From Candidatus Staskawiczbacteria bacterium (lineage in GTDB: Bacteria > Patescibacteriota > Minisyncoccia > Minisyncoccales > Staskawiczbacteraceae): 64,000 nucleotides of DNA. Below, one piece after another: positions 1,126-58,072 of this stretch. A model generated the notes under the pieces. It was not told where the DNA came from and did no database searches. It saw nothing but the letters and a program-made list of their open reading frames with translations. A program made the position numbers and the translations under genes. Position 1 is the first letter of the stretch, and every line of letters starts with the position of its first letter. The stretch lies in assembly GCA_963778905.1 (NCBI GenBank), contig CAVZWH010000024.1:12498-76497 (forward strand), in the 5' to 3' direction.

Positions 1126-2757
1126 ATGTATTTATTGCTAAATACGCTTTGGTTTATATGGATGCTAAAATACGTCTTGTTTTGGCTGTATTTGTGGCAG
1201 TTAAAAGAATATCATATCGGCAGATTTATAGACCACCTTAGAACTCATAAAGGCAAGAAACTTTTATTTAGCCCAATCCAGATTTTTAAGTTTATTTCAG
1301 TATTAGTTCTTCTTCTATACAACAATAGTTTTTTTATCTATTTATTTCCAATTTTACTTTTAATATATATCGGCGAATTTCTCCTGGTTTTAAGAGCAAT
1401 TTTTTCTAAATCAATAAAAAAGCCGATAAGAACTTTCAAATCGTTATTTTTAACATCAGTTTCTTTTGCAATTGTTATTTTATTTTTGATCTGGACGTCA
1501 AACTTTTCTGATACATTTGGAGTAATTCTTCTTTTAGCTTTTGACGTTTTAATTCCGCTGATTATTTCTGCGGTTGTCCTTATATTTCAGCCGTTTTTTG
1601 TTATAATAAGAAGCAATATTTTGAAAAAAGCCGGCAAAAAACTTGAAAGGATAAAATCGGTCAGCAAGCTGACGGTTATAGCGGTTACCGGATCTTACGG
1701 AAAAACATCAACCAAAGAATTTTTGGCGACAATACTTTCTAAAAAATTTAAAGTTTTATCAACAAAAGAACATCAAAATTCTGAAATCGGTATTGCAAAA
1801 TGCATTTTAGAAGACCTAAAACCTCATCATCAGATTTTTATTGCCGAAGTCGGCGCTTATAACAAAGGAAAAGTAAAAGAAGTCTGCTCTATGCTAAAAC
1901 CAAAAATTGGCATTGTGACCGGCGTAAATGAGCAGCATCTGGCGCTTTTTGGCTCATTAAAAAATTTGCTTTCGGCGGAAGGAGGCGAGGAATTGGCGGA
2001 GGCTCTGCCAAAAGATGGAATTTTAGTTGTAAATGGCGACAACAGATATTGTTTAGCTCTTTGCAAGGGAACAATTGTCTGCGCGATCACAGATAAAAAC
2101 AAAAAAATTTATAGTTTGAGCAACAAGATAATAAATTCAGATATTTGGGCAGATAGCATCACCGTTCATAAAAATTATATTTCTTTTTTAGCAATTGATA
2201 AGTCGGGCAATATGGCGCATTTTGACGTAAAAGTTTTGGGCAAACAAAACGTTCAAAATCTTTTGGGAGCTATTTTGGTGGCAAAAGAATTGGGCATGAA
2301 TTTTGACCAGATTTCTGAAGCTTGCAAAGACATTTCACAAAAACAAGCAGGGATGGTTCTAAAACAAGGAAAACATGGCTTTGATATTATAGATTCTTCT
2401 TATTCTGCAAATTCTGATGGAGTTTTGGCCGATTTAGATTATTTTTCAATTTTCCAAGGCAAAAAAATTATTATAATGCCGTGTTTAATAGAGCTTGGAA
2501 AAAAATCTTTTGAAGTGCACCAGAAATTGGGCAAAAAAATTGGCGAGGTTTGCGATTTAGCCATAATAACAAGCAAAGACAGATTTGAAGAATTGAAAAA
2601 GGGAGCAATGGAGGCTGGAATGAAAGAAAAAAATATTATATTTTGCGACAATACGCAGGACATTTATTCAATGATTACGCTTTTTTGTAAATCTGGCGAC
2701 GCGGTTTTGTTAGAAGGCAGAGTTCCGGCTGGCTTAATAAAATTATTATCAAAATGA
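1126..2757 (+). CDS. Mur ligase family protein (MurF-like central+C-terminal domains) with ~180-aa N-terminal polytopic membrane domain
   Basis: VIAVTGSYGKTSTKEFL P-loop, DSSYSANSDGVLADLDYF and MPCLIELGKKSFEVHQKLG resemble MurF C-terminal domain; N-terminus is 5-6 hydrophobic helices instead of the Mur ligase N-domain. Confidence 0.65.
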   Translation: MYLLLNTLWFIWMLKYVLFWLYLWQLKEYHIGRFIDHLRTHKGKKLLFSPIQIFKFISVLVLLLYNNSFFIYLFPILLLIYIGEFLLVLRAIFSKSIKKPIRTFKSLFLTSVSFAIVILFLIWTSNFSDTFGVILLLAFDVLIPLIISAVVLIFQPFFVIIRSNILKKAGKKLERIKSVSKLTVIAVTGSYGKTSTKEFLATILSKKFKVLSTKEHQNSEIGIAKCILEDLKPHHQIFIAEVGAYNKGKVKEVCSMLKPKIGIVTGVNEQHLALFGSLKNLLSAEGGEELAEALPKDGILVVNGDNRYCLALCKGTIVCAITDKNKKIYSLSNKIINSDIWADSITVHKNYISFLAIDKSGNMAHFDVKVLGKQNVQNLLGAILVAKELGMNFDQISEACKDISQKQAGMVLKQGKHGFDIIDSSYSANSDGVLADLDYFSIFQGKKIIIMPCLIELGKKSFEVHQKLGKKIGEVCDLAIITSKDRFEELKKGAMEAGMKEKNIIFCDNTQDIYSMITLFCKSGDAVLLEGRVPAGLIKLLSK

Positions 2758-4019
2758 GTTATTTTAAGCCAATATCAATATCGCTTTCGCCAAATGTTGA
2801 AAAGGACGATTTACATCTGGCCCTAAATTTGATTGTGCGGCCATGGCTTTGGAAAAAAGGGAAAGCGGTGAGTGAATTAGAAAATGAATTTAGAAATTAT
2901 CTTGGCGTAAAATATGCTTTTTCTTTTAATTCTGGAAGAAGCGCTTTTTTTGCGATTTTGAAATCCTTAAATTTAGAGAAGCAAAGCGGCGTTTTGTTGC
3001 AGGCTTTTACTTGCAATGCGGTTCCAAACCCTGTTTTATGGTCAGATTTGGCTCCCGTTTATGTTGATTGCAATAAAGATGATTTTAATATTGATGTTGA
3101 AGACTTAAAGAAAAAAATTACTCCGCAAACAAAGGTTTTAATTGTTCAGCACACATTTGGACTGCCGGCAAACATGGACGAAATAATTTCTATTGTGCGG
3201 GACCCAAAGGGTACCCCTGGTTTGATTTTAATAGAGGACTGCGCGCATTCGTTGGGAGCAGAATTTAATGGGCAAAAAGTTGGCACATTAGGAAAAGCCG
3301 CATTTTTTAGTTTTTCAAGAGACAAAGTAATTTCTTCAGTTTATGGCGGCATGGCTGTCACCAACGACGAAAAAATTGCAAAAAATTTAGAACAATTGCA
3401 GAAAGAATTTGGCCAGCCATCAATGTTCTGGATTTTTCAGCAAATTTTGCATCCTATTTTATTGGGTTATATTATTTTGCCAGTTTATAACTTTTTGGAT
3501 TTGGGAAAAATATTTTTAGTTTTTTCGCAAGTGACGCATATTTTGTCTAAAGCTGTTTCCTGGAAAGAGAAAAGGGGACAACGCCCAGATTATTTTCCAA
3601 AAGCTTTGCCAAATGCAATGGCAATTATGGCTTTGAATCAATTTAACAAATTGGAAAAATTTAATAATCACAGGCAAAAGGTTGCAAATTATTATTTTGA
3701 AGCCTTAAAAGGCGGAAATTTCAAACTGCCTAAAAAATTTGAAAACAGAAAAAATATTTTTTTGCGTTTTACTGTAAAACACCCGAAAGCTCACGAAATA
3801 ATTTATGATGCCTGGCACAAACAAAATATATTGCTTGGCGACTGGTACACAAGTGCGATTGCTCCGTTTGACACAAAAATTGAGCAAATAAAATATAAAC
3901 CGGGAAGCTGTAAAAATGCCGAGGAATTATCAAAAACTACATTAAATCTGCCAACCCATATTAATATCTCAAAAAAAAATGCAGAATGTATTATTAACTT
4001 CCTAAAAACGTGGAATTAA
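2754..4019 (+). CDS. DegT/DnrJ/EryC1/StrS-family PLP-dependent sugar aminotransferase
   Basis: DCAHSLGAEFNGQKVGTLG and SFSRDKVIS (PLP-lysine region) motifs; overlaps upstream gene by 4 nt. Confidence 0.8.
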   Translation: MSYFKPISISLSPNVEKDDLHLALNLIVRPWLWKKGKAVSELENEFRNYLGVKYAFSFNSGRSAFFAILKSLNLEKQSGVLLQAFTCNAVPNPVLWSDLAPVYVDCNKDDFNIDVEDLKKKITPQTKVLIVQHTFGLPANMDEIISIVRDPKGTPGLILIEDCAHSLGAEFNGQKVGTLGKAAFFSFSRDKVISSVYGGMAVTNDEKIAKNLEQLQKEFGQPSMFWIFQQILHPILLGYIILPVYNFLDLGKIFLVFSQVTHILSKAVSWKEKRGQRPDYFPKALPNAMAIMALNQFNKLEKFNNHRQKVANYYFEALKGGNFKLPKKFENRKNIFLRFTVKHPKAHEIIYDAWHKQNILLGDWYTSAIAPFDTKIEQIKYKPGSCKNAEELSKTTLNLPTHINISKKNAECIINFLKTWN

Positions 4020-5062
4020 AAGAAATAATAAATAAAGATGAATGGGAGGAATTTTTGTTGCAGTGTACGGAAAAAACTTTTTTGCAATCCTGGAATTGGG
4101 GCGAATTTAACAAAGCAATGCAAAGCAAGATTTGGAGATTTGGAGTTTATAACGGCAAAAGATTAATTGCCGCCGCCTTAGTTATAAAAATTTCGGCAAG
4201 AAGAGGAACTTTTTTGTTTGTTCCTCATGGGCCGGTTGTTGCTGAAGGATTAGAAGAAAAAGATAAAAAAGAAATTTTGGAATTAATTTTAATCCAATTA
4301 AGCGGAATTTCCAAAGAAGAAAAAGCAAGTTTTATAAGATTTTCTCCAATTTTCAGCAGGAGCGAGAAAAATGAAAATATTTTTATTGATTTAGGTTTTA
4401 GGTTATCTCCTATTCATATGCATCCGGAGGCCACATGGGAATTAGATATTACTTTACCGGAAGAGAAGCTGTTAATAAATATGAGAAAAACCGCCAGATA
4501 TTTAATCCGCCAGGCAGAAAAAAATCCGGATATAGAAATAGTAAAAAGCAATAATATTGAGGACTTAAAACTTTTTTGGCCCGTTTATCAAAAAACTGCA
4601 AAACGGCACCACTTCGTAGTTTTTTCTGAAAAATATTTGCAGACAGAATTTAATTGTTTTTCTAACGACAAAGAAATATCAATATTTTTGGGAAAATATA
4701 AGGGACAGGTTGTGTCCTCGGCCATTTTTGTTATTTGGCAGGGTATTTGCTTTTATCATCATTCGGGGTCTTTAACAAAGTTCAATAAAATTCCGGTTTC
4801 TTATTTATTGCAGTGGCATGCTATAAAAGAGGCGAAAAACAGAGGATGTAAAATTTATAATTTTTGGGGAATTGCTCCGGGCATAGAAACCGAATCCGAT
4901 GCGCAAAAATCATCTCATCCCTGGGCTGGCCTGTCGCTTTTTAAGATGGGATTTGGCGGATATAAAAAAGAATATGTCAAAACACAGGATTTTGTTATCT
5001 CCAAAAAATATTGGATAAATTATATAATCGAAGTTTTAAGAAAACGTAAAAGAAACCTTTAA
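4010..5062 (+). CDS. FemAB-family peptidyltransferase (peptidoglycan interpeptide bridge formation), GTG start
   Basis: FLQSWNWGEF..., two GNAT-like halves, WGIAPG motif typical of FemX/FemAB proteins. Confidence 0.7.
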   Translation: MELKEIINKDEWEEFLLQCTEKTFLQSWNWGEFNKAMQSKIWRFGVYNGKRLIAAALVIKISARRGTFLFVPHGPVVAEGLEEKDKKEILELILIQLSGISKEEKASFIRFSPIFSRSEKNENIFIDLGFRLSPIHMHPEATWELDITLPEEKLLINMRKTARYLIRQAEKNPDIEIVKSNNIEDLKLFWPVYQKTAKRHHFVVFSEKYLQTEFNCFSNDKEISIFLGKYKGQVVSSAIFVIWQGICFYHHSGSLTKFNKIPVSYLLQWHAIKEAKNRGCKIYNFWGIAPGIETESDAQKSSHPWAGLSLFKMGFGGYKKEYVKTQDFVISKKYWINYIIEVLRKRKRNL

Positions 5063-5910: not shown

Positions 5911-5912
5911 TG

Positions 5913-5940
5913 AACCGCCGATAGGCGGTTTTTTGTTTTG
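5913..5940 (+). terminator. rho-independent terminator
   Basis: aaccgcc-gata-ggcggtt hairpin followed by TTTTTGTTTTG. Confidence 0.7.
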
Positions 5941-5998
5941 CCTTCAATAAATTTGACAAACTAATATAATCAATGTATAATAAAATATATTTAAAAAT

Positions 5999-6937
5999 AT
6001 GAATTATTCTTTGCCTGAGGCAAAATTTAACGTTGAATTTTTGCAAAATTTTTTAGAAAGCAATATTTTGTTATATTGCATTATTTTGCTTTTGGCATTA
6101 AAAATTATTACCGTTGCTGTCTCTATCAATTTTCCGCAGAATATATTTTTTGCCGACATAACAAGGGCATCTCTTGAAAATTTTGCAAACCAGACACGTC
6201 AATCAGTGGGTTTGCCCTCGTTGGTAGAAAATCAAAAATTAGATCAGGCCGCCCAATCAAAGGCAGAAAATATGGTGGCAGATGATTATTTTGCCCACAC
6301 AAGCCCGCAAGGAATTACGCCGTGGTATTGGTTTTTGCAAGCCGGATATAATTATAAATATGCCGGAGAAAATTTGGCAATTGGGTTTTTTGATTCGCAA
6401 GAAGTTTATAACGCCTGGTTAAATTCTCCTTCGCATAAGGCAAATATTGTAAATCCAAATTACAAGGAAGTTGGCACGGCCGTGTTGGCTGGATTCGGCC
6501 CAAACAATACAATTGTTGTTGTTCAGGATTTTGGAAGCCAGTTGCCGGCAAAACAAGTTGCAACCCAGCCAAAACAGACTTCAGCTGTTAAACCAAGTGA
6601 ACAAACCCCGGTTGCCAATGCCGGAGAAAAAGTTTTGTCGCAATCAACAGAATCGCAAAGTACGTTGGAAACCGCCAAAACAGGCAGTTCAAATGTTTAT
6701 TCTAAAATTATGAATTCTGTTTTATACAATTATGGCGGATTGTTGCAGGACATTATTTACGGAGTTTCTTTGGTCGTGATAGGAATTTTGCTTGCGCTGA
6801 TATTTTTTAACGCAAGCATTCCTTTTGAAAATAAACTTGTATTTAGGTCGGTTCTTATTGTAATATTATTATCACTGGCAACATTATTAAACAAAGGTTT
6901 TATAGTTGCAATTATTCCGTATCAAATAATTATTTAA
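5999..6937 (+). CDS. CAP (SCP/PR-1-like) domain secreted protein with C-terminal membrane anchor
   Basis: YFAHTSPQG...GENLAIGF...WLNSPSHKANI CAP-domain signature; N- and C-terminal hydrophobic segments. Confidence 0.7.
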   Translation: MNYSLPEAKFNVEFLQNFLESNILLYCIILLLALKIITVAVSINFPQNIFFADITRASLENFANQTRQSVGLPSLVENQKLDQAAQSKAENMVADDYFAHTSPQGITPWYWFLQAGYNYKYAGENLAIGFFDSQEVYNAWLNSPSHKANIVNPNYKEVGTAVLAGFGPNNTIVVVQDFGSQLPAKQVATQPKQTSAVKPSEQTPVANAGEKVLSQSTESQSTLETAKTGSSNVYSKIMNSVLYNYGGLLQDIIYGVSLVVIGILLALIFFNASIPFENKLVFRSVLIVILLSLATLLNKGFIVAIIPYQIII

Positions 6938-6938
6938 T

Positions 6939-7643
6939 ATGAACAAAGAAAACGCAAAGAAAATTTTGAAATTGGCTGTCGCGATATATCTGGCAAGTTT
7001 TCTGATTATTAACTGGAATGATGTTTCCTGGATTTTTAATTACAAAGAGGTTGCCGGATTAGTGGAAGATTTTTTCAATCCATATCCATCTATAGATGCT
7101 TCTACCATGAACGCATATTTTTATCCAAATCATAGCCAAGATGCTACTTCTGTGGCAACAGGACAACCTGTCGCCCAATCCATTAAAAACGTAAAAACAA
7201 ATTTTACGGACCAGCAAAACACATTAGAGGTTCCCAAATTATCTCTTTTGCTTCCCATAGTTTTTGCAGACAGCACAGATAAAGAAACTATGGCAAAAGA
7301 TCTTGATTTGGGAGTGGTATTTTATCCGGGATCAGTTTATCCCGGCCAAACCGGTCAGATGATAATTTTGGGGCACTCGGCTCCTCCTGGCTGGCCGCAC
7401 ATAAAACACGACTGGGCTTTTACCGACTTAGATAAGTTAGTTCCCGGAGATACAATATTAATTGACTTAAATAACAAACAATATACATATGTAGTAAAAG
7501 AAAAAGATATTATTAAAAGAGGAGCCGATGTCCCAACAGATAGTTCGGCCATTAATAATAATGTCCTAACACTGATTAGTTGCTGGCCGCCGGGAAAAGA
7601 TTATCAAAGGATAGCAGTTTCAGCAGAGTTCCAAAACAACTAA
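6939..7643 (+). CDS. sortase family transpeptidase
   Basis: N-terminal TM, conserved His (ILGHS) and TLISCWP (TLxTC catalytic Cys) motif. Confidence 0.75.
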   Translation: MNKENAKKILKLAVAIYLASFLIINWNDVSWIFNYKEVAGLVEDFFNPYPSIDASTMNAYFYPNHSQDATSVATGQPVAQSIKNVKTNFTDQQNTLEVPKLSLLLPIVFADSTDKETMAKDLDLGVVFYPGSVYPGQTGQMIILGHSAPPGWPHIKHDWAFTDLDKLVPGDTILIDLNNKQYTYVVKEKDIIKRGADVPTDSSAINNNVLTLISCWPPGKDYQRIAVSAEFQNN

Positions 7644-7787: not shown

Positions 7788-10700
7788 ATGAATACATTTT
7801 TGAAAGTTTTCGTAATAACCGGCCTAACTATAGTTTCGGCAATTTTGATTTCCGTAACAATGGCGCCGGCTACGGCCAGAGCATTAAGTTGTGATGGGAA
7901 TTCAGGTCCTGCTAACCAAGGAACAGTTGTTTTAGCCCAAGACAGCACAGTAACCGTGACTGTTAATTATATCTGTAATGATCTTAGGGACACGGATTAT
8001 TTCGGTTTGTCGTCTCCAACAAAAATTACTTTTGGAGAAGCCCATAGTTCATCAAACGGATCATATAACGCTGGAAATTTCAAAGCAGGTACAGAACTAA
8101 TATTTTTTCTTTATGACGCCACTCATGGCAATACATGGTACACTGGTCCTGCCTCCAGAAACTCAGATGGACAAGTCCATGCAGATTTCAGAAATGTCGG
8201 AACCAATAACTGGACTATTGGTTTTAATGATGCAGCGTACCCAGCGGACAATAATTTATTCAACGATATTGTTATAAATGTGACCGCCACCCCTTCCTGC
8301 ACCGCCAACAGCACAAAACAGTGCTCGGGCAACGCAGTATATTGGTATAATTCATGTGGAACAAAAGGAAGCCTTTTTCAGCAATGTACATCAACACAAA
8401 CATGTACCAACGCTCAATGCGTAAACAATTGTACCCCCAACACCGCTAAGCAATGCGTCGGCAACGCTGTCTACAACTTTAACTCCTGCGGAGTTCAGGG
8501 TACTCTCTACCAGCAATGTACATCAAACCAGATTTGTCAGAACGCACAGTGCGTGAATATTGCCTGTTCATCAAACACCGACTGCGGTGCCAACGCCTAC
8601 ACCGGCTCACCCTTCTGCCAAGGCAACTCAGTTTACCAAAACTACATAACATACACATGTAACAACCCGGGAACAGCAAGCTCATCTTGTTCTAATAGTA
8701 CGGCCGCACAAAAGAAAAATGATTGTACAGCTAATCAGACGTGTTCGAACGGCGCATGCGTTAATCAAACCATCACCTGCACCAGCAACACCGACTGCGG
8801 AGCTAACGCCTACACCGGCTCACCCTTCTGCCAAGGCAACAGCGTTTACCAGAATTACATCACCTACACATGTAACAACGCTGGCACATCAACCTCGTAT
8901 TGCTCCAACAACACAGCAGCACAGAAAAAGAACGATTGCACAGCTAACCAGACCTGCGCCAACGGTTCGTGCACCAACCAGAACATAACCTGCACCAGCA
9001 ACACCGACTGCGGAACAAACAGCTACACCGGCTCACCCTTCTGTCAGTCAGGTAATGTATATCAAAACTACATAACATACACCTGCACTAATCCGGGAAC
9101 AGCCAGTTCGTACTGCTCAAACAACACAGCTTCACAATTAAAAACAACCTGCGCATCAGGACAGACCTGCGCCAACGGAAGCTGCTCAAATCAAACCATC
9201 ACCTGCACCAGCAACACCGACTGCGGAGCTAACGCCTACACCGGCTCACCCTTCTGCCAAGGCAACAGCGTTTACCAGAATTACATCACCTACACATGTA
9301 ACAACGCTGGCACATCAACCTCGTATTGCTCCAACAACACAGCAGCACAGAAAAAGAACGATTGCACAGCTAACCAGACCTGCGCCAACGGTTCGTGCAC
9401 CAACCAGAACATAACCTGCACCAGCAACACCGACTGCGGAACAAACAGCTACACCGGCTCACCCTTCTGTCAGTCAGGTAATGTATATCAAAACTACATA
9501 ACATACACCTGCACTAATCCGGGAACAGCCAGTTCGTACTGCTCAAACAACACAGCTTCACAATTAAAAACAACCTGCGCATCAGGACAGACCTGCGCCA
9601 ACGGAAGCTGCTCAAATCAAACCATCACCTGCACCAGCAACACCGACTGCGGAGCTAACGCCTACACCGGCTCACCCTTCTGCCAAGGCAACAGCGTTTA
9701 CCAGAATTACATCACCTACACATGTAACAACGCTGGCACATCAACCTCGTATTGCTCCAACAACACAGCAGCACAGCTAAAAACCACCTGCACGGGAAAC
9801 CAGACATGCAGCAACGGAAGCTGTTCAACAACCTGCACCCAAAACTCATATCAGCAATGCCAAGGAAACTATCTGTATTGGTACAACTCATGCGGAGTCC
9901 AGGAAGGCCAGTCGCAGTACTGCCCCAACGGATGCTCGGGCAACTCGTGCACGAACAACAACTGCACTTACCACTCGTACGAGCAGTGCATCGGCAACAA
10001 CCTTTACTGGTACAACTCGTGCGGAGTTCAGCAGGACTTGGTTCAGTACTGCCCAAACGGATGCTCAGGGAATACGTGCACGAACAATAATATTTATGCA
10101 ACAGTTCAAACAAATTCAGCGACAAATGTAAACAATAACCAGGCAACTCTAAATGGTTATTTATATTCCGGCAGCAACAATAATAATAATTGCACTAATT
10201 ATGTTTGGTTTCAATACGGACCAACTACTTCCTATGGGACTGAAACAAATCACCAGACGCAAGGTTATTCCGGAGCATTTAGCCAAATTGTAAACTTATA
10301 CAATAATTACAATACCAACAGCTATCACTTCAGGGCCGCAGCTCAGGATTGTTCGGGCAACACGGTTTACGGCCAGGACATGACAATTTACAGCAACAAT
10401 ATTGGAACAGGAACTTTAACCGTAAACAAAACAGTCAGAGACCTCACCACTGGTGCTGGATTTGCCAGCTCAACTTCAGCCTCTCCAAGCGATATGTTGA
10501 TGTTTATGATAACTTTGCAGAATACAGGCAGCCAAGATGTTTCAAATGTGATTGCCAGAGATTATCTTCCTGCAAACCTTATTTACAATGACCAGTTGAC
10601 CGTTGCCTGCACAACCAATAACAGCAATTACAATAATTGCAATGGAAGCAATTACAATTACACTGGAAATATTTCATCTGGCGTAAACTTAAATACAATA

Positions 10701-11087
10701 TATGCCGGCCAGACAGTAACAATTACTTATCAGGTGCAGGTTGCCGGAGCTGCAAACTTTTCTTACGGATCTACAACATTGAATAACAATGTTTCTGTAT
10801 CAAGCACTAACGGTAGCAACCCTACATCATCAGCATCAGTCATTGTAACCAGAACCGCAGTTTACGGAGCCAGCACAGTTTCAACCGGATTAACCAATAA
10901 TTTTTGGGTTGATTCGTTTTTCTTGCCATTATTGCTCACCTTAATTGGTCTTTGGATGTGGAGATCTGGAGTGTTTTTCGGAGTAGAAAAATGGTTAGAC
11001 AACAAGAAAAAAATCCGCAGAGGATACAAAGCAGAAAAAGAATTGAACCACAGAATTACTCAAATACAAAAGACAGAAAGAGTATAA
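7788..11087 (+). CDS. giant cysteine-rich repeat surface protein (signal peptide, ~15 Cys-rich modules, FN3-like + DUF11-like domains, C-terminal sorting-signal-like tail)
   Basis: Signal peptide-like N-terminus; alternating 71-aa six-Cys modules (CTSNTDCGANAYTGSPFCQGNSVYQNYITYTC...); YHFRAAAQ FN3-like; TLTVNKTVRDL...DYLPANLIY DUF11-like; C-terminal STGLTNN-hydrophobic-KKKIRRGYK tail. Confidence 0.8.
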   Translation: MNTFLKVFVITGLTIVSAILISVTMAPATARALSCDGNSGPANQGTVVLAQDSTVTVTVNYICNDLRDTDYFGLSSPTKITFGEAHSSSNGSYNAGNFKAGTELIFFLYDATHGNTWYTGPASRNSDGQVHADFRNVGTNNWTIGFNDAAYPADNNLFNDIVINVTATPSCTANSTKQCSGNAVYWYNSCGTKGSLFQQCTSTQTCTNAQCVNNCTPNTAKQCVGNAVYNFNSCGVQGTLYQQCTSNQICQNAQCVNIACSSNTDCGANAYTGSPFCQGNSVYQNYITYTCNNPGTASSSCSNSTAAQKKNDCTANQTCSNGACVNQTITCTSNTDCGANAYTGSPFCQGNSVYQNYITYTCNNAGTSTSYCSNNTAAQKKNDCTANQTCANGSCTNQNITCTSNTDCGTNSYTGSPFCQSGNVYQNYITYTCTNPGTASSYCSNNTASQLKTTCASGQTCANGSCSNQTITCTSNTDCGANAYTGSPFCQGNSVYQNYITYTCNNAGTSTSYCSNNTAAQKKNDCTANQTCANGSCTNQNITCTSNTDCGTNSYTGSPFCQSGNVYQNYITYTCTNPGTASSYCSNNTASQLKTTCASGQTCANGSCSNQTITCTSNTDCGANAYTGSPFCQGNSVYQNYITYTCNNAGTSTSYCSNNTAAQLKTTCTGNQTCSNGSCSTTCTQNSYQQCQGNYLYWYNSCGVQEGQSQYCPNGCSGNSCTNNNCTYHSYEQCIGNNLYWYNSCGVQQDLVQYCPNGCSGNTCTNNNIYATVQTNSATNVNNNQATLNGYLYSGSNNNNNCTNYVWFQYGPTTSYGTETNHQTQGYSGAFSQIVNLYNNYNTNSYHFRAAAQDCSGNTVYGQDMTIYSNNIGTGTLTVNKTVRDLTTGAGFASSTSASPSDMLMFMITLQNTGSQDVSNVIARDYLPANLIYNDQLTVACTTNNSNYNNCNGSNYNYTGNISSGVNLNTIYAGQTVTITYQVQVAGAANFSYGSTTLNNNVSVSSTNGSNPTSSASVIVTRTAVYGASTVSTGLTNNFWVDSFFLPLLLTLIGLWMWRSGVFFGVEKWLDNKKKIRRGYKAEKELNHRITQIQKTERV
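8769..9775 (+). repeat. perfect 426-bp (142-aa) tandem repeat, ~2.4 copies, inside the giant surface protein gene; diverged copy at ~8563-8768
   Basis: Identical nucleotide stretches begin at 8769, 9195 and 9621 (accatcacctgcaccagcaacaccgactgcggagctaacgcc...), third copy diverges near 9775. Confidence 0.9.
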
Positions 11088-11094
11088 AGAAACA

Positions 11095-11130
11095 AAAAGC
11101 CCGCGACCAAGTCGCGGGCTTTTTGTTTTT
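11095..11130. terminator. bidirectional rho-independent terminator (serves giant gene on + and recR on -)
   Basis: agcccgcgac-caa-gtcgcgggct hairpin flanked by A-run upstream and TTTTTGTTTTT downstream. Confidence 0.75.
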
Positions 11131-20868: not shown

Positions 20869-21456
20869 ATGATTACAATTTTAACTGACGAAAATTTTGA
20901 GGAACAAATAAAAAGCATTGAAAAATTAGTGCTTGTTGATTTTTTTGCAACGTGGTGCGAGCCGTGCTCTGTGCTCGCTCCGATTTTAGAAAAAATTGCA
21001 GAAGAGTTGAAAGAAAAAATTATTTTAATGAAGGCCAATCTTGACGATGTTCCAAAAGCTGCGGGAAAATTTGGAGTTGAAAAAATTCCGACAATAATTT
21101 TATTCAAAAACGGCCAGCCAATTTCAGGACTTGTTGGATTAGCCCCATATTCTTCAATTAAAGAATGGATAGAAAATGCGGAAAAAGAAAACGAACCGGA
21201 TATTAAAGAAATAATAAACAGATATGATAATTATGCAAAATCAAACGGATTTAGATTAAATCCTGACAAAAAAATAGTTGAAAGAGTTGTTAAGGGACTT
21301 TTAGCCAATGAAAAAAAATACGGGAAAAAATATTGTCCATGCAGAAGAATTTCTGGCAACGAAGAAAAAGATTCAGAAAAAATTTGCCCTTGCGCATTTC
21401 ACAAACAAGAAATTGAAAAAGACGGCCATTGTTTGTGCAATTTATATGTAAAATAG
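20869..21456 (+). CDS. thioredoxin domain fused to ferredoxin-thioredoxin-reductase catalytic-subunit-like Cys-rich domain
   Basis: N-terminal Trx fold with WCEPC active site; C-terminal YCPCRR...ICPCAFH...GHCLCNLY resembles FTR-beta CPC/CPC/CHC cluster. Confidence 0.6.
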   Translation: MITILTDENFEEQIKSIEKLVLVDFFATWCEPCSVLAPILEKIAEELKEKIILMKANLDDVPKAAGKFGVEKIPTIILFKNGQPISGLVGLAPYSSIKEWIENAEKENEPDIKEIINRYDNYAKSNGFRLNPDKKIVERVVKGLLANEKKYGKKYCPCRRISGNEEKDSEKICPCAFHKQEIEKDGHCLCNLYVK

Positions 21457-23465: not shown

Positions 23466-25037
23466 ATGAAAAACACAATTTTCAAACAAATATTTCTTTT
23501 AACTATTTGTTTTTTGCTTCTTTCCGTTGGCACAGCTGTATTTGCTCAAACCGTATCGCAAATTCAGACAAATTCAGCAACAAACATATCCAGCTACCAA
23601 GCAACCTTAAACGGATATTCATCCGGAAGTTCTTATAATACATATGTTTATTTTCAGTGGGGAACAACAAATGGCTATGGCAGCCAAACAAATCAACAAA
23701 ATATAAACTCTGCCGGCTCGTTTATCCAAGTTATCGCAGGTTTATCCGCCAACACCACTTACCATTTTAGAGCAGTTGCGCAAAACAATTACGGAACAGT
23801 TTATGGAAATGACATGACTTTTTACACAAGCGGAACCGGCACAAACACAATAACAGCCAACGCCGGACCAGATTTGTATTTGGGTTCTGGGCAAGCGGCA
23901 ACTTTGCAGGGTTCGGGATACGATCCAAACGGATATTCAATAAATTATTATTGGACATGCAATGGCGGAACTTTATCAAATTACAATATTGCTCAGCCAA
24001 CTTACACAGCTCCCTACGCAATCAATGGCAGCAGCCAAACAACTTATACTTGCACGCTTACAGCTACAAATAGTTATGGAAGTTCAAATTCAGACAGCAT
24101 GATAGTTTATGTAAATTATAATAACAACAATAACAACGGATCTTTTTATGCGCAGACAAATTCAGCAACAAATGTTCAAAATAATCAAGCAACCTTAAAC
24201 GGATATGAAGCCGGCGGCGCAACTTACAATAATTATGTTTGGTTTCAATACGGAACTGACACAAATTATGGAAACAATACAAACCAGCAGACGTTAAATT
24301 ATTCCGGCTCGTTTACCCAAAACATTGCAAACCTTTCTTACAACACCACTTACCATTTTAGAGCAGTTGCAGAAAGCAGTGGTCAAACAGTTTATGGCCA
24401 GGATATGACTTTCAACAGCAACGGCTCAAATAATAATTATTATGGCAATGGATCTTTATCAATTACAAAGCAAGTTATAAATCTTTCTTCTGGAAACTTA
24501 GCTTGGCAGTCATCAGTAAACGCAAAACCTGGCGACGTATTAAGTTTTGCCATAACTTTGCAGGCAACTGGCGGCCAGGAAATTGACAATGTTTTTGTGC
24601 GCGACAATCTGCCCGCAGACCTAATTTACAAAGGAAATATGACCGTAAATGCTTCGCAAAATTATTCGGGAAACCCTGCGTCGGGAATTAACATCGGCAC
24701 AATTCCAGCTGGCGGAATAGAAGTTATTGCTTATCAGGCGCAAGTGGCTCCGGCAGCAAATTTCATTTATGGAACAACAACATTAAGCAACAATGCAACC
24801 ATTACCAGCACAGAAGCGGGAACGCAAACCGCCAGCGCATCAGTTTTTGTGAATAATTCGTTGGTTTACGGAGCAGCAACATCTGTTTCAACCGGCTTAA
24901 CCAACAACCCAATAACAGATTCATTTTTCTTGCCAATGATTTTAATTATTTTTGGCTCTTGGTTTTATTTTTCAGGAAACGTTTACAAATTTTCCGACTG
25001 GCTTGGGTCACGGTTAGGAATTGGAATAAAGTTTTAG
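23466..25037 (+). CDS. surface protein with two FN3-like domains and DUF11-like domain; C-terminal tail homologous to that of the giant protein at 7788-11087
   Basis: Signal peptide; two TNSATN...ATLNGY...TYHFRAVA repeats; DUF11-like ITKQVINLSSG...DNLPADLIY; C-terminus VYGAATSVSTGLTNNPITDSFFLPMILIIFGSWFYF. Confidence 0.7.
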   Translation: MKNTIFKQIFLLTICFLLLSVGTAVFAQTVSQIQTNSATNISSYQATLNGYSSGSSYNTYVYFQWGTTNGYGSQTNQQNINSAGSFIQVIAGLSANTTYHFRAVAQNNYGTVYGNDMTFYTSGTGTNTITANAGPDLYLGSGQAATLQGSGYDPNGYSINYYWTCNGGTLSNYNIAQPTYTAPYAINGSSQTTYTCTLTATNSYGSSNSDSMIVYVNYNNNNNNGSFYAQTNSATNVQNNQATLNGYEAGGATYNNYVWFQYGTDTNYGNNTNQQTLNYSGSFTQNIANLSYNTTYHFRAVAESSGQTVYGQDMTFNSNGSNNNYYGNGSLSITKQVINLSSGNLAWQSSVNAKPGDVLSFAITLQATGGQEIDNVFVRDNLPADLIYKGNMTVNASQNYSGNPASGINIGTIPAGGIEVIAYQAQVAPAANFIYGTTTLSNNATITSTEAGTQTASASVFVNNSLVYGAATSVSTGLTNNPITDSFFLPMILIIFGSWFYFSGNVYKFSDWLGSRLGIGIKF

Positions 25038-51422: not shown

Positions 51423-51494
51423 GCCCCGGTAGCTCAATGGTAGAGCAGTAGCCTTTTAAGCTATTGGTTCCGAGTTCGAGTCTCGGCCGGGGCA
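51423..51494 (+). tRNA. tRNA-Lys (anticodon TTT)
   Basis: Acceptor gccccgg/ccggggc, D-arm gctc-AATGGTA-gagc, anticodon stem gtagc/gctat loop cuUUUaa, T-arm ccgag-TTCGAGT-ctcgg. Confidence 0.9.
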
Positions 51495-52967
51495 CAAATT
51501 AGAACAGCCGTTCGCCAAAGCCATTGCTTGGAACGGCTTTTTAAGTGTAAAAGTGAGGTTTTTACCGCTTAATTTGGAGTTCTGAAATAGAAAGTTGATA
51601 AATGCTCGCTTTTCCATTGGTTCAGAACTTTTGAATAGCGAATATGCCCGTTTAGCAAGGCTCATAATCATTGCAATAGTGATATAAAATTCTTTGTCGG
51701 CTTTCTGATGTTTTTCCATTTCCTTGTTTAGGGCTGTCTGTTTTGCGTCGTATTCGTTGATTTTTTTATCGTAGTCCTCTTTGGCTATTTCCTCGTCAGC
51801 TAATCTATCAAGCAAGTTGCTTTTTCTTTTTGCATATTTATCGTGCTCTGCCCGCAGAGTTTTCATTGAGCCCTCGTAAAACTCATTCTTTGCGTCCTCG
51901 CTCTGTGCCAAAAGCGTCATTAGGCGTGTTTTTTGCCTCTCTGTGAGGCTTATCTTGCGGAGAACCTTGTATATTGGCTTAAATAGGTCATTCTCGTTGA
52001 CATAGAGCCTTTTAGTGTGCATTTTCTTGCTGTTGGTGCAACTATAATAATGATATTTGCCTTTGTGTGTTTCCGCCGTAATCGTGCAACCGCAATCGGC
52101 ACATTTTACCAAACCTCTGAAAGCATAAGGTTTGCAAGCGTATCTAAACTGCTTTTTATTAAAGCCACTAAAAACATCTTGCACTCGGTCAAATAATTGT
52201 TTTGAAATTAAAGGCTCGTATCGGTGCGGATAGAGAACTCCCTTAATTCTCATTTGCCCGTAATAAAACGGGTCTCGTAAAATAATATAAATTTGTCCTC
52301 TTGGTAGGGGCTTGGGAGTTTTGGTATTGCTTCTTAATCCCGCCCTTTCCATTACCTCTTGAATTTGTTTAGTTGAGGAAGTCCCAGTTGCATACATCTC
52401 AAACATCTTAACAATAAATTGACTTCTTAACGGGTCGGGTATTACATTTATTCTTTTGCCCGTATCGTCATAAACTCCCACATAGCCGATTTTTGGTTTT
52501 GTAATCCATTCTTTGTTTTGTATCTTTTGCTCGTAGCTTCTTTTAACATCATCAGAAAGCCTATTAAGATATTGTTTAGCCAAAAATACTTTCGCCTCCC
52601 ACATAAACATCTGGTTGCCTGTTGCATTTTTATTTACAAAAAACCCGTCTTGCACAAAATGAATTTCTAAATCCTCTTTGCGTCGCATTTCGTCTAAATC
52701 AACAGCGTCCTTGAAATTCCTTGTTGCTCGGTCAACATTCTCACAAAGCAAAACTCTAACATCTTTATGGCTTCTAATATACGCAATAACTTCCTCAAAC
52801 TTTTTTCTTATTTTATCTCCCGCACTTTCGTGAAATGAAAAAGTCTCAACTATTTCAAAGTCTTTTTTCTTTGCATATTCCTGCAACCTCCTTATTTGAG
52901 CGGGGAGTGAGTGTCCCTGCTCCTCCTGCTCCTTTGTTGAAACTCTTGCGAGTATTACCGCTTTCAT
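51456..52967 (-). CDS. large serine recombinase (resolvase-type catalytic domain + recombinase/zinc-ribbon domains)
   Basis: N-terminal VILARVSTKEQ...SLPAQ catalytic Ser motif, C-terminal CADCGCT...YYSC zinc ribbon, coiled-coil; 3' end overlaps tRNA-Lys antisense; ATG overlaps res stop (ATGA). Confidence 0.8.
   Translation of the reverse strand: MKAVILARVSTKEQEEQGHSLPAQIRRLQEYAKKKDFEIVETFSFHESAGDKIRKKFEEVIAYIRSHKDVRVLLCENVDRATRNFKDAVDLDEMRRKEDLEIHFVQDGFFVNKNATGNQMFMWEAKVFLAKQYLNRLSDDVKRSYEQKIQNKEWITKPKIGYVGVYDDTGKRINVIPDPLRSQFIVKMFEMYATGTSSTKQIQEVMERAGLRSNTKTPKPLPRGQIYIILRDPFYYGQMRIKGVLYPHRYEPLISKQLFDRVQDVFSGFNKKQFRYACKPYAFRGLVKCADCGCTITAETHKGKYHYYSCTNSKKMHTKRLYVNENDLFKPIYKVLRKISLTERQKTRLMTLLAQSEDAKNEFYEGSMKTLRAEHDKYAKRKSNLLDRLADEEIAKEDYDKKINEYDAKQTALNKEMEKHQKADKEFYITIAMIMSLAKRAYSLFKSSEPMEKRAFINFLFQNSKLSGKNLTFTLKKPFQAMALANGCSNLCPGRDSNSEPIA
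51506..51542 (+). terminator. rho-independent terminator after tRNA-Lys (lies antisense within recombinase ORF)
   Basis: agccgttc...gaacggct hairpin + TTTT. Confidence 0.6.
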
Positions 52968-55633
52968 TTAATAACTGCTTTTAATTTTCTATGAAACTCT
53001 GGCTCATAGGTATAGTTCCCATTTCTTACAATTTCAGTAAAGAAATTGTTATAATCGTCTGAGCTTACAATATAACCAAAATACTTTTTGCCTTTCAAAA
53101 CTTTGTTTAGCTCGGCTAAATAATTATTAAGCCCCTCTAATTTCAGTTTGTTTTTTAAAGTAATATCAGTTTTATCTTTTATCTCAACAAGTAAATAAAC
53201 ACTATCATTCATTTTAATTATAAAGTCGGGGTTAAACTCAATCTTATATTCGTCCTTACTGCAATCAATATAATAAAAGCCCCTTGATTTTGATTTTATC
53301 CACGCCTCAATGGTTTCATTGTTATTAAATAACCTTTCAATAAATTCTTTTTCATTGTCGCTATCTGGGAGTATAAAATTTAAAGGGTTCTTATATTTAT
53401 CTTTTTTAATATCATAAAATCTTTTTAAAATTGATTTTTTAGCTTTACCCTTAAACAATTCAAGGTCTTCTTTGTCGTCTATTAACCCCTGCCTTTGATA
53501 TTTTTTTAATTCGTAATTTACCAAATCTTCCAAATAATCCCACTTTTCAATATCGGTAATTTCTTGGCAATAAAAAGCCTTTTCATAATCATCTAAAAAA
53601 GTCTTAATGCCAACATTAGAAACTCCAAAATCTTTCGTATTTTTTTGTTTAATTTCGTATTGCTTTTTTTCCTCTTTGGCTTTTTCAGATATGCCCCAAT
53701 CAATACTGCTAAATTCTTCTTCAATCCTTCTAAAATTATAAACTGAAATTCTGTCTTTAATTTTTGACTTCTTAATCGTGGAGCAATCTAAAACACAATC
53801 AGCAAACTCTTCTGCGTTCCTAAATTTATCGGTAAAATCAGTATCAAGCCCAACGCCTTGATTATACCAGTCAACCAAATACTTTTTTGAATAATACTCA
53901 ATTTCAAAATTTGCCTGCATATAGCCCTCGCCCTTATCTCTTAAAGTCATAGTTCCAAACGCAACATCTAAATCTTTGCCTTGCTCCTTAAAGTTAGCAG
54001 TTGCCTTATTCAATGTATCTTTCATTGATATTTTTACTGCTTTCTGCGTTTCTCTTTTCTGTTGTGCTTTATCAAAATCTTCATTAAAATCCTCAAACTT
54101 TTCTTCTAAATAATCAATGTCAAAATTAAATTCTTTTGTTGGTTTAACCTCAAAGCGGTTTGTTGTATCAACAACATCATTAACTAATAAATTTATATTT
54201 TCGTCTCCCCATTTTTTGTGGTTTAAAACAATAACTTCTTGATATTTATCGTCTAAATTTGGCACACGCCTTAAACCCCTGCCGACTACCTGCGAAATTA
54301 AAAGTTTTGAATTAAACGCTCTCTCTTGGTGAGGGACAATTAAAAATACATTCTTGCAGTCCCAACCCTCTGAAAGCATACTAACCGAAATTATCCATTC
54401 AACTTTGTTTGCCTTGCTTCCGTCGTAAATATCAACATTATCAAATAGCTCTTCATTTTTTAAATGCTCGGGGTCAGAGGTGTAGCAAATCACTTTTTCG
54501 TCAATATCCTTTTCTTTTTTGTCTTTCAAAATCTTTTTAAAATCCTCCTCAACTTTTTTGGCTTCGTTAATATCGGCAGTAATGATAATGCCAATCGGTT
54601 TTTTGTTTATACCGTTATTTTTAAATTCTTTTTTAATTTTCTCTAACTGCTCTATGGCTAATAAAAATTGTTGTTTTTCTGCTTGAATTTCAGATATTTT
54701 TTCGTCGCCCTCTGGAAGATATTTAATATCCTTAATTACATCATTTTTAATAGCGTCCATTAAACCATATCTGTAAATAACATTATGCAAATATGTATTT
54801 GTTGCCTCAAACGGAGTAGCAGTAAAGTTTATAATGTTTTTTATTTTATAATCAGCATTATCTAAAAACTCCTTCCATTTTTTAATATCTTGGTATTCTT
54901 GGTTTCTCGGGTTGCTCCCCTGATTGAAATTATAAATATGGTGGGCTTCGTCATTTATTATTAAAACATCTTCGCCTCTGCCGTTTCCAAAACTTTCCTC
55001 TTTTGACAAAACAGCATTTTCGCTTTCATAAAATTTATGTATGTTATCAATAGCCAAACAATTATCTCCCAAAGCGTCCTCGTGCAAAGAAACAAGGTTT
55101 GGAAGTTTTAAGTTTTGAATTGATTTTATTTTATCAAAAAGCTCCTCAAACTTTTGGTTTAATTGTTTTTTAATTGTCTTTGACGGAGTAATTATTTGCA
55201 CTCTTTTAATCTCTGGCAGTTCGTTTAAAAGAATTATCGCAATTAAAAACATTACATAGCTTTTGCCAGTTCCAGTCGGCAAATCAATAGTCGCAATACG
55301 CTTGTTTAAATCGTCTAATTTGCCCTTAAAACCACTTCCGTATATTTCCTTGTAATAGTCCTCTAAGTCGCTGTTATGGGCTAAATTTTCGCTTAACAGC
55401 CCGTCTAAATCGCTATACTCTAAGTAATAGCTTAAAAGCTCCTCAATGGCTTGTTTCTGAAAGAAAAACTTGTTTGTGTCTTTATCCTCGCCCCGTCCGC
55501 AGACAACATCAATCAACTCCTGATATTTTTCAAGGACTTCTGGCTTTACTCTTTTTTTAGGTTTAAGTATTAGCTTGTCTGTTTTTAATTCCATAGTTTT
55601 AAATCGTAAATTGTTTAAATAATTCATTGCCAA
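52964..55633 (-). CDS. Type III restriction enzyme Res subunit (SF2 helicase + endonuclease)
   Basis: DLPTGTGKSYVM Walker A, NDEAHHIY DEAH box, helicase C-terminal motifs; immediately downstream of mod with 35-nt overlap. Confidence 0.75.
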   Translation of the reverse strand: MAMNYLNNLRFKTMELKTDKLILKPKKRVKPEVLEKYQELIDVVCGRGEDKDTNKFFFQKQAIEELLSYYLEYSDLDGLLSENLAHNSDLEDYYKEIYGSGFKGKLDDLNKRIATIDLPTGTGKSYVMFLIAIILLNELPEIKRVQIITPSKTIKKQLNQKFEELFDKIKSIQNLKLPNLVSLHEDALGDNCLAIDNIHKFYESENAVLSKEESFGNGRGEDVLIINDEAHHIYNFNQGSNPRNQEYQDIKKWKEFLDNADYKIKNIINFTATPFEATNTYLHNVIYRYGLMDAIKNDVIKDIKYLPEGDEKISEIQAEKQQFLLAIEQLEKIKKEFKNNGINKKPIGIIITADINEAKKVEEDFKKILKDKKEKDIDEKVICYTSDPEHLKNEELFDNVDIYDGSKANKVEWIISVSMLSEGWDCKNVFLIVPHQERAFNSKLLISQVVGRGLRRVPNLDDKYQEVIVLNHKKWGDENINLLVNDVVDTTNRFEVKPTKEFNFDIDYLEEKFEDFNEDFDKAQQKRETQKAVKISMKDTLNKATANFKEQGKDLDVAFGTMTLRDKGEGYMQANFEIEYYSKKYLVDWYNQGVGLDTDFTDKFRNAEEFADCVLDCSTIKKSKIKDRISVYNFRRIEEEFSSIDWGISEKAKEEKKQYEIKQKNTKDFGVSNVGIKTFLDDYEKAFYCQEITDIEKWDYLEDLVNYELKKYQRQGLIDDKEDLELFKGKAKKSILKRFYDIKKDKYKNPLNFILPDSDNEKEFIERLFNNNETIEAWIKSKSRGFYYIDCSKDEYKIEFNPDFIIKMNDSVYLLVEIKDKTDITLKNKLKLEGLNNYLAELNKVLKGKKYFGYIVSSDDYNNFFTEIVRNGNYTYEPEFHRKLKAVIK

Positions 55634-57653: not shown

Positions 57654-57657
57654 AAAA

Positions 57658-57837
57658 TTATTTGGTTTTTACTTTATTTAAAAAATTATTAAACTCTTCC
57701 TTATCTATTCTAAACTCTTTGCCTATTTTATAGGCTTTTACTTTTTTCCGCTTAATGTATCTGTAAATTGTCATTGTTGAAACTCTTAGCTTTTCAGCTA
57801 ACTCCTCAACAAGGTAAAATTCTTTTTCTTGTGTCAT
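57658..57837 (-). CDS. excisionase-family HTH DNA-binding protein (59 aa; not in ORF track because <60 aa)
   Basis: MTQEKEFYLVEELAEKLRVSTMTIYRYIKRKKVKAYKIGKEFRIDKEEFNNFL matches HTH_17/Xis pattern; stop 4 nt before mod ATG. Confidence 0.5.
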   Translation of the reverse strand: MTQEKEFYLVEELAEKLRVSTMTIYRYIKRKKVKAYKIGKEFRIDKEEFNNFLNKVKTK

Positions 57838-57841
57838 ATTT

Positions 57842-57997
57842 TTATTTTTTTATTAACCTAATATCGTCGCCATAAACAGCCTCATAAAGTCCCACAAAGT
57901 TGTTAGCTCGGCGGGTTGCTTCCTCGTCTGATAATTTTATGCCGTAATTTTTATAATATAGCTCCCTAAATTCCTCAACAGCTTCTTTTGGCAACAT
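57842..57997 (-). CDS. small hypothetical protein (51 aa) upstream of xis-like gene
   Basis: ORF MLPKEAVEEFRELYYKNYGIKLSDEEATRRANNFVGLYEAVYGDDIRLIKK in operon position; weak. Confidence 0.2.
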   Translation of the reverse strand: MLPKEAVEEFRELYYKNYGIKLSDEEATRRANNFVGLYEAVYGDDIRLIKK

Positions 57998-58072
57998 ATT
58001 TTTTTATTACTTTTTAATGCTATTATGTCATTATATCGTATTTAACAATGGTTGACAACAGCAAGCTGTGGA

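Follow-up and report, generated by a model that had tools for sequence, protein, structure and literature searches.

Signals of the LPXTG type fasten proteins to the Gram-positive cell wall. Class A sortases are the housekeeping enzymes of this process and class E uses LAXTG, while the usual acceptor is the interpeptide bridge of the peptidoglycan; classical signals need neither a motif of about 20 residues nor a cytoplasmic helix. Here we examine a C-terminal tail shared by two secreted surface proteins, together with the sortase encoded beside one of them, in a 64,000-nucleotide stretch (the window) of a genome of Candidatus Staskawiczbacteria bacterium (Patescibacteriota; GenBank assembly GCA_963778905.1, contig CAVZWH010000024.1, positions 12,498 to 76,497 of the forward strand; GC content 35.6%). 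Among described enzymes, Spy0129, a sortase of Streptococcus pyogenes, cuts EVPTG at the bond joining T to G and has the consensus (E/Q/V)(V/P)PTG (PMC3019223). More than half of the genomes of the Candidate Phyla Radiation (CPR)/Patescibacteria encode a sortase, and the paper reporting this gives no substrate motif (Méheust et al. 2019, PMC6744442). We found no paper or curated model describing a sortase substrate motif for Parcubacteria.

The features on which our argument rests are the following.

6939 to 7643, forward strand: sortase of 234 residues with an N-terminal membrane anchor, upstream of the gene for the giant surface protein
7788 to 11087, forward strand: giant secreted surface protein of 1099 residues, with an N-terminal signal peptide and a long-type tail
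10860 to 10928, forward strand: extracellular motif of this protein, VYGASTVSTGLTNNFWVDSFFLP, starting at V1025
10884 to 10889, forward strand: its candidate scissile bond, T1033/G1034
10917 to 10961, forward strand: its hydrophobic membrane segment, FFLPLLLTLIGLWMW, from hydropathy and an AlphaFold helix running from N1039 to R1059
10962 to 11084, forward strand: its predicted cytoplasmic segment, RSGVFFGVEKWLDNKKKIRRGYKAEKELNHRITQIQKTERV, a basic cluster and a conserved helix (the long subtype)
23466 to 25037, forward strand: second secreted surface protein, 523 residues, with a signal peptide and a short-type tail
24864 to 25034, forward strand: the short-type tail of this protein, with VYGAATSVSTGLTNNPITDSFFLP at 24864 to 24935
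24891 to 24896, forward strand: its candidate scissile bond, T476/G477
24924 to 24971: its hydrophobic segment, FFLPMILIIFGSWFYF, followed by SGNVYKFSDWLGSRLGIGIKF

We favour, with a probability of about 0.6, the interpretation that Staskawiczbacteria and related Parcubacteria (CPR/Patescibacteria) use this tail as a lineage-specific sorting signal for a sortase, similar to LPXTG and probably cut at the T/G bond. The data show that the tail family exists, how it is conserved and placed, that it is modular, which proteins carry it and which genes it is linked to, along with the fold and triad of the sortase; recognition by this particular sortase, the position of cleavage and the acceptor are what we infer.

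Both open reading frames (ORFs) end as the original prediction had it, in VYGA(S/A)T(S)VSTGLTNN…DSFFLP followed by a hydrophobic helix and a basic stretch, and neither tail contains LPXTG, LAXTG or NPQTN, which had also been recognized. The first protein closes with …VYGASTVSTGLTNNFWVDSFFLP-LLLTLIGLWMW-RSGVFFGVEKWLDNKKKIRRGYKAEKELNHRITQIQKTERV, its candidate cleavage site being spanned by the stretches AVYGASTVSTGLTNNFWVD and TAVYGASTVSTGLTNNFWVD, and the second with …VYGAATSVSTGLTNNPITDSFFLP-MILIIFGSWFYF-SGNVYKFSDWLGSRLGIGIKF, a short and weakly basic terminus. The start proposed for the first tail (10860) was exact and that for the second (24840) lay 8 codons too early. What had been described as a short basic tail in the first protein is really a segment of 41 residues (R1059-V1099) conserved across the family. 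A hydrophobic segment followed by a positively charged C-terminus, as in LPXTG signals, is present in both copies; the basic cluster is pronounced in the long-type copy (KKKIRR) and less so in the short-type one.

The last ~310 residues of the two proteins are 50% identical (E 6e-76), so that the shared tail reflects homology and not independent recurrence. The proteins are therefore paralogues, as had been proposed, and they would be paralogous sortase substrates, as had been proposed too, under the interpretation given above. Against this background of 50%, STGLTNN and DSFFLP are 100% identical between the two copies, and 8 of the 24 identical tail residues are encoded by different codons. 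Identity of the motif despite differing codons points to purifying selection, and the synonymous differences argue against recent gene conversion between the copies. The proteins share other domains, in part as predicted: a DUF11-type repeat occurs in both (TIGR01451 scores of 26.2 and 29.8 against a cut-off of 24; PF01345 27.2 against 24.6 in the first) and modules marked by TYHFRA/SYHFRA are repeated and shared, but neither protein matches a Pfam fn3 model, which 1 of 86 relatives does. The giant protein consists of Cys-rich tandem modules (78 Cys), an FN3-like module and a DUF11 domain at residues 894-1015 (10467-10832), the second protein of two FN3-like modules, a PKD-like domain and the DUF11-type repeat. 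The Cys-rich modules are encoded by a 213-bp tandem array (8574-9823; 5.9 copies, 74% matches), within which a 426-bp unit is repeated 2.4 times at 100% identity (8763-9776); this perfect repeat is either a very recent duplication or a repeat collapsed or expanded in assembly.

The tail belongs to a large family. An exhaustive HMMER search of 1.84 billion cluster representatives with a nine-sequence tail profile returned 317 clusters at E ≤ 1e-3, of which 202 also pass a threshold of 1e-10 and 23 one of 1e-30, overturning the impression of rarity left by a word-indexed search that had found only 9 short fragments. In the best 150 of the 317 clusters the match always reaches the C-terminus, in carriers of 71 to 2208 residues. 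A degenerate DNA pattern for TGLTNN-x3-DSF-x2-P, run on 596 Gb of species-representative genomes, gave 85 sites, all in ORFs confirmed by the tail hidden Markov model (HMM); by our own estimate the pattern carries ~41 bits, for which fewer than one chance match is expected. Nearly all of the sites are in metagenome-assembled genomes (MAGs) labelled Staskawiczbacteria, Nealsonbacteria, Paceibacterota, Minisyncoccales or Parcubacteria.

The logo derived from 151 tails reads V-x-G-A-[TS]-[TS]-[VI]-[SP]-T-G-L-T-N-N-φ-φ-x-D-S-F-φ-L-P-L-(7 hydrophobic)-W-φ-φ-[KR]-S-G, and falls into three parts: an extracellular motif that is nearly invariant, a hydrophobic stretch of variable sequence and a K/R cluster. 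The most strongly conserved positions are P31 (all 151 tails), T17 and T20 (150 each), G18 (149), D26 (148), F28 (146) and N22 (144). In the core, x-[V/I]-[S/P]-T-G, the residue corresponding to LPXTG position 2 is V or I in 147 of 151 tails and that at position 3 is Ser in 115 and Pro in 18. Two subtypes can be distinguished, of which the window holds one example each. In the long subtype (122 tails) the K/R cluster is followed by a conserved helix, …Y-K-A-E-K-E-L-x-x-R-I-x-x-I-Q-K-x-E, with columns W53, K57-58, Y64, K68, L70, I74, I77 and E81 conserved in an alignment of 127 long tails, while the short subtype (21 tails) ends in …S-G-x-x-Y-x-F-A-D-W-L-K-x-K.

An N-terminal hydrophobic signal is present in 108 of the 125 carriers that start with M. 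Among 86 carrier bodies scanned, DUF11 was found in 51 (E ≤ 0.001), PKD_4 in 20 and K319L-PKD in 14, with Big_9, DUF4114 and Laminin_G_3 also represented, and the carriers look, from their sequences, like exported adhesin-like surface proteins. Since in some members (such as P0004) the tail directly follows an FN3-like module, it is a module in itself and not just the end of the DUF11 domain. These data support the view that the tail is a lineage-specific, strongly conserved and strictly C-terminal module carried by what appear to be secreted surface proteins. Database records call the tail proteins "hypothetical protein", no Pfam or NCBIfam model describes the tail, and we found nothing specific in the literature on either the motif string or the substrates of CPR sortases.

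Some records of the family are atypical. In one MAG (CAZREI010000001.1; L002, 9880-10003) the tail is a separate ORF of 102 residues, some 100 bp and a stop codon away from a body of 1238 residues ending in DUF11, a split that reflects a pseudogene, an insertion or an artefact of assembly; several other "short" database matches are similar fragments. Tail genes also occur on short contigs from MAGs labelled Syntrophales, Nanoarchaeota, Bipolaricaulis and Berkelbacteria (L046, which includes a sortase, L061, L081 and L044), and many other contigs with tail genes bear the label "uncultured Candidatus Saccharibacteria". All of these contigs probably come from Parcubacteria and were mis-binned or mis-labelled.

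The position of the motif relative to the membrane was examined in an AlphaFold (AF2) model of the last 215 residues of the giant protein (mean predicted local distance difference test, pLDDT, 71). The DUF11-type beta sandwich ends at …SASVIVTRT and is followed by a coil covering exactly AVYGASTVSTGLTN (fragment residues 140-153; pLDDT below 50). A first helix (155-176), beginning with NFWVDSFFLPLLLTLIGLWMWR, and a second (178-214), passing through the basic and cytoplasmic segment, complete the fragment. The invariant T-G is thus located in an exposed linker, four residues short of the modelled helix and nine short of the hydrophobic stretch, and this is the geometry of a sortase signal. FFLP, one of the two places initially considered for the recognition motif, forms the start of the membrane helix in this model, which makes it an unlikely cut site.

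The neighbouring gene is indeed a sortase gene, as had been predicted. Its product scores 67.8 bits against Pfam PF04203 (cut-off 26.6; E 9e-19), and the triad H146 (in ILGHS), C215 (in TLISCWPPG) and R224 (in YQRI) is invariant among 25 homologues. The AF2 model, with a core pLDDT of ~65-88 per 10-residue block, has the eight-stranded beta-barrel fold and matches solved sortases in Foldseek at E 1.6e-10 with a probability of 1.00. Sequence identity across the clade is 60-80%, a level to be expected of an enzyme whose substrate motif is fixed. Assignment to a class was attempted with NCBIfam, a sequence search of the PDB and Foldseek, none of which resolved one. The best matches in the PDB and Foldseek searches are class C pilus sortases (8gr6, 6ixz, 4g1j), but structures of classes C, D, E and A all match at similar E values (1e-10 to 1e-9) and the classes are not separated. 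Some database records label relatives of the enzyme "class E", whereas its class E score is only 44.8 against a cut-off of 160. The other NCBIfam scores are 51.4 for class D (cut-off 165), 54.7 for SrtD (140), 51.8 for class C (160), 23.4 for class F (166) and 38.4 for the generic model TIGR01076 (39.35), and no class B model is among the NCBIfam matches at E ≤ 1. Between the transmembrane (TM) anchor and a variable linker, residues 25-66 form a near-invariant segment, NWNDVSWIFNY…DFFNPYPSIDAS…YFYPNHS; an NPY within it is similar to the lid that class C sortases have, D-P-[FWY], in a region where AlphaFold confidence is below 50.

Linkage between tail and sortase was assessed from both sides. 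Starting from the tails, a same-strand sortase gene is found upstream in 26 of 43 genome loci with at least 900 bp visible upstream, 16 of them within 250 bp. Starting from 80 metagenome loci chosen by sortase similarity alone (and not de-replicated), a tail ORF lies downstream on the same strand in 22 of the 27 loci with at least 4 kb of downstream sequence, directly adjacent in 20. Tails adjacent to a sortase are of the long subtype in 44 of 46 cases and never of the classic short subtype, whose orthologues adjoin UvrD in 6 of 7 loci, as in the window, and thus define a second conserved locus; in some of these, LtaS or other genes of the window block occupy the other flank. Divergent lineages (L008, L019, L036, L063, L072, L073 and L077; sortase E 1e-46 to 1e-57) tell more than the close relatives: there FtsQ, FemAB, RecR and DnaB were not detected nearby, while sortase and tail protein remain together, usually preceded by a gene for a CAP-domain protein. 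In 1.42 Mb of related DNA we counted 110 ORFs of the tail family but found no C-terminal LPXTG, LAXTG or NPQTN signal that is genuine, which leaves the tail family as the sole visible candidate substrate of this sortase.

Other proteins also occur close to these sortases. Two loci (L131, 5000-6208, and L141, 6282-9203) have a different, short, sortase-adjacent tail, …(VPAT/GASTD)SGFW.F.K+W followed by a hydrophobic stretch and KRLSSE. Its consensus is …[ST]-S-G-F-W-x-F-x-K-x-W + TM + KRLSSE, and these are the only two instances in 1.4 Mb; it may be a second type of signal, or a degenerate one, for the same sortase clade. The gaps of ~1 kb between sortase and tail genes in 10 loci contain heterogeneous secreted or Pro-rich proteins and no conserved family. 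In L148 (12413-15329) the sortase and tail genes are separated by four tandem paralogous genes for small secreted proteins of ~220-250 residues, which end in …VVTKG.VVTY and are without the tail; an intervening gene in L007 has a similar ending.

How does this arrangement compare with those already described? Like the LPXTG system, it includes substrates with signal peptides, a T-G motif in an extended linker ahead of a hydrophobic segment and a cytoplasmic cluster of basic residues, a Cys/His/Arg sortase anchored in the membrane and, nearby, FemAB genes for a peptidoglycan bridge. It differs in its pentapeptide, which has neither L-P nor L-A, in matching neither TIGR01167 nor PF00746, in the ~13 further near-invariant residues (LTNN-x3-DSF-x2-P) and, in the long subtype, in a cytoplasmic helix of ~35 residues. 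The lineage-specific motif that had been predicted is thus C-terminal, conserved and linked to a sortase, but it is not wholly unlike LPXTG, with which it shares T-G. The core x-[V/I]-[S/P]-T-G resembles the (E/Q/V)(V/P)PTG class, which provides a biochemical precedent for a T|G cut. As in the Spy0129 system (class B; FCT pilins; QVPTGV-class domain), whose T|G scissile bond is proven, Val occurs at position 2 and the substrate gene lies beside that of a dedicated sortase. In contrast to that system, where position 3 is Pro, Ser replaces this Pro in most of our tails, the substrates are without YPKN or an E-box, the sortase is not of class B and has its top structural matches in class C, and the conservation of LTNN…DSFFLP is without counterpart. 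The PEP-CTERM/exosortase and PGF-CTERM/archaeosortase systems offer a different parallel: a short, lineage-restricted C-terminal signature with a TM segment and a basic cluster, present on several otherwise unrelated secreted proteins per genome and linked to one dedicated enzyme. Here, however, that enzyme is a sortase (PF04203) and not a polytopic member of the exosortase family, no CTERM model is matched, and the signature lies ~9 residues outside the TM segment instead of at its edge. In function the tail would be comparable to an LPXTG-type signal. Its motif is nearest to the VPTG class, and in general style it comes nearest to the CTERM domains, which are lineage-specific.

The genes and signals surrounding the sortase and the giant protein are as follows.

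1126 to 5062: Mur ligase, DegT-type aminotransferase and FemAB-family enzyme, directly upstream of ftsQ-CAP-sortase
5912 to 5931: terminator-like hairpin after ftsQ, preceding the promoter candidate
5953 to 5981, forward strand: sigma-70-like promoter candidate (TTGACA-17-TATAAT, 12/12 matches) ahead of the CAP gene
5999 to 6937, forward strand: CAP/SCP-domain membrane protein of 312 residues (Pfam PF00188, E 6e-16)
11090 to 11128, no strand assigned: GC-rich hairpin with an 18-bp stem, immediately after the stop codon of the giant gene

The Mur ligase, DegT and FemAB neighbours suggest a peptidoglycan with an added interpeptide bridge in this CPR organism. As a class, sites resembling promoters show no enrichment in the window relative to shuffled sequence (16 found against 12.9 expected), so that only the perfect match and its position are suggestive. 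The hairpin at 11090-11128 is likely a bidirectional terminator closing the unit; together with the promoter candidate it brackets the CAP, sortase and surface protein genes, which therefore likely form a single transcription unit. The CAP protein has a hydrophobic segment near its N-terminus, two more near its C-terminus and, as its last residues, a conserved PHQIII. Its stop codon is 1 nt before the sortase start, and it is the first gene of a conserved CAP-sortase-tail protein trio. Of 33 close loci, 30 have it upstream of the sortase, and it is also present in the divergent loci L063, L073, L077, L072, L036 and L011. Because it stays beside the sortase in divergent lineages despite other losses of synteny, it may be a functional partner of the enzyme. 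The idea that it might be a second substrate, through a TAKTG located before its C-terminal TM segments, was rejected as TAKTG is not conserved in 69 orthologues.

Elsewhere in the window, 51456-59203 (reverse strand) encodes a large serine recombinase, a ResIII/SWI2-SNF2 helicase and an N6/N4 DNA methylase (restriction-modification-like), and a phage-type integrase; judging from these gene products, this is probably a mobile or defence island. An ORF at 20869-21456 fuses a thioredoxin domain to the catalytic domain of a ferredoxin-thioredoxin reductase (FeThRed_B).

Under the interpretation that the tail is a sortase signal, the surface proteins would be exported by Sec through their N-terminal signal peptides and would then stay in the membrane, anchored by the hydrophobic helix of the tail and with its basic segment facing the cytoplasm. 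This would leave the disordered linker …G-A-[S/T]-[S/T]-[V/I]-[S/P]-T-G-L-T-N-N… displayed just outside the membrane, where the neighbouring sortase (Cys215/His146/Arg224) would attack it, most probably at T1033|G1034 (T476|G477 in the second protein), and transfer the protein to a cell-wall (peptidoglycan) acceptor, a FemAB-type enzyme and a Mur ligase being encoded just upstream. The LTNN…DSF…P stretch probably makes extra contacts with the enzyme or the membrane interface, beyond those of a pentapeptide.

Several observations weigh against this interpretation. The sortase falls below every NCBIfam class A-F cut-off and fits no curated class, and no sorting-signal model, whether for LPXTG, QVPTGV or another signal, matches the tails (NCBIfam at E ≤ 1, Pfam at E ≤ 0.01). 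Pro is absent from LPXTG position 2 and rare at position 3. Conservation covers ~20 residues (LTNN, DSF, P, W) and runs into the membrane helix (P31, W40), and the long subtype adds a conserved cytoplasmic helix. T20-N21 (…LT|NN) is as invariant as T17-G18, which makes the scissile bond ambiguous, and …GLT|NN may be an alternative to T|G. The block FemAB-FtsQ-CAP-sortase-tail protein / RecR-DnaB is kept in ~30 of 33 close loci; with such whole-block synteny most of the adjacency counts are not independent, and adjacency is weaker evidence. Five sortase loci are without a standard tail gene nearby; L131 and L141 carry the different tail mentioned above, and L091, L093, L111 and L113 are sortase loci without a nearby tail gene. 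Much of this would also fit an uncleaved C-terminal membrane anchor, whose motif and cytoplasmic helix would serve insertion, oligomerization or contact with a cytoplasmic or wall partner, the sortase being merely syntenic and acting on other substrates. The long conserved helix and the conserved W and K/R-S-G in and after the TM segment do suggest a separate function for the C-terminal part; the adjacency in close relatives lies inside the larger block, the tail matches no sorting-signal HMM and the short-tail paralogues never adjoin the sortase. We nevertheless consider an anchor of this kind unlikely. Conservation is strongest in the extracellular linker (T-G, T-N-N, D-S-F) and not in the TM core, the linker is disordered in the AF2 model and hence is not a folded interaction surface, and the linkage of sortase and tail outlasts the loss of flanking synteny. 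We saw no alternative sortase substrate in the 1.42 Mb of related DNA, and a T-G 9 residues before a hydrophobic stretch with a basic cluster is classic sortase geometry.

A role for the sortase as a polymerase, like the class C pilus enzymes, linking tail proteins to one another in a fibre or to a partner (the CAP protein, for example) and not to peptidoglycan, appears improbable. Its closest matches by Foldseek and in the PDB (8gr6, 6ixz, 4g1j) are of this type, it is operonic with one dedicated substrate as in pilus islands, and its N-terminal NPY is reminiscent of the class C lid D-P-[FWY]. Against this, structures of classes C, D, E and A match alike, the NCBIfam class C score is far below its cut-off (51.8 against 160) and the putative lid is modelled at low confidence. 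The YPKN pilin motif and the E-box are absent from both window proteins and occur in 2 and 0, respectively, of 149 family members, and the substrates are large, heterogeneous and adhesin-like instead of pilin-sized. It is highly improbable that the tail is recognized by an enzyme other than a sortase, be it one of the exosortase, archaeosortase or rhombosortase type or some uncharacterized protease of the membrane. An extended motif running into the TM segment with a basic cluster does look more like PEP-CTERM or PGF-CTERM than like a bare pentapeptide, and the CAP-domain protein, a polytopic membrane protein with no assigned function, is conserved next door. However, no exosortase, archaeosortase, rhomboid or CPBP family was found among 44 of the 48 ORFs of at least 150 residues (all except four RecR-, DnaB-, CysS- and UvrD-like ones) in this 64 kb of the genome, the tail matches no NCBIfam sorting-domain (CTERM) model, and the sortase is the only recurrent enzyme neighbour. 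A rather unlikely elaboration of the sortase-signal interpretation is that TGLTNN-x3-DSF-x2-P, the amphipathic cytoplasmic helix of the long type and the adjacent CAP protein act together with the sortase as a composite module, so that recognition would require much more than five residues. A CAP-sortase membrane complex might for example dock the substrate by its TM segment and cytoplasmic helix, or the released C-peptide might be regulatory.

As a sorting-signal family of Parcubacteria that is well supported, had not been annotated before and has its own dedicated sortase, and with cleavage as its presumed mode of action, the tail would extend the known sortase paradigm and would not represent a new mechanism. 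It provides a concrete pair of peptide and enzyme, possibly a sortase with a new ligation specificity (x-V-S-T-G), and a defined tail by which records of "hypothetical protein" could be annotated. With an HMM, it would also serve as a marker by which to search for the surface proteins that Staskawiczbacteria and their relatives display on the wall. The composite module, if true, would constitute a distinct CPR surface-display system for attaching the adhesins of episymbionts. The carriers of the tail are candidate adhesins, large and Cys-rich or of PKD or DUF11 type, through which these ultrasmall and probably host-dependent cells may attach.

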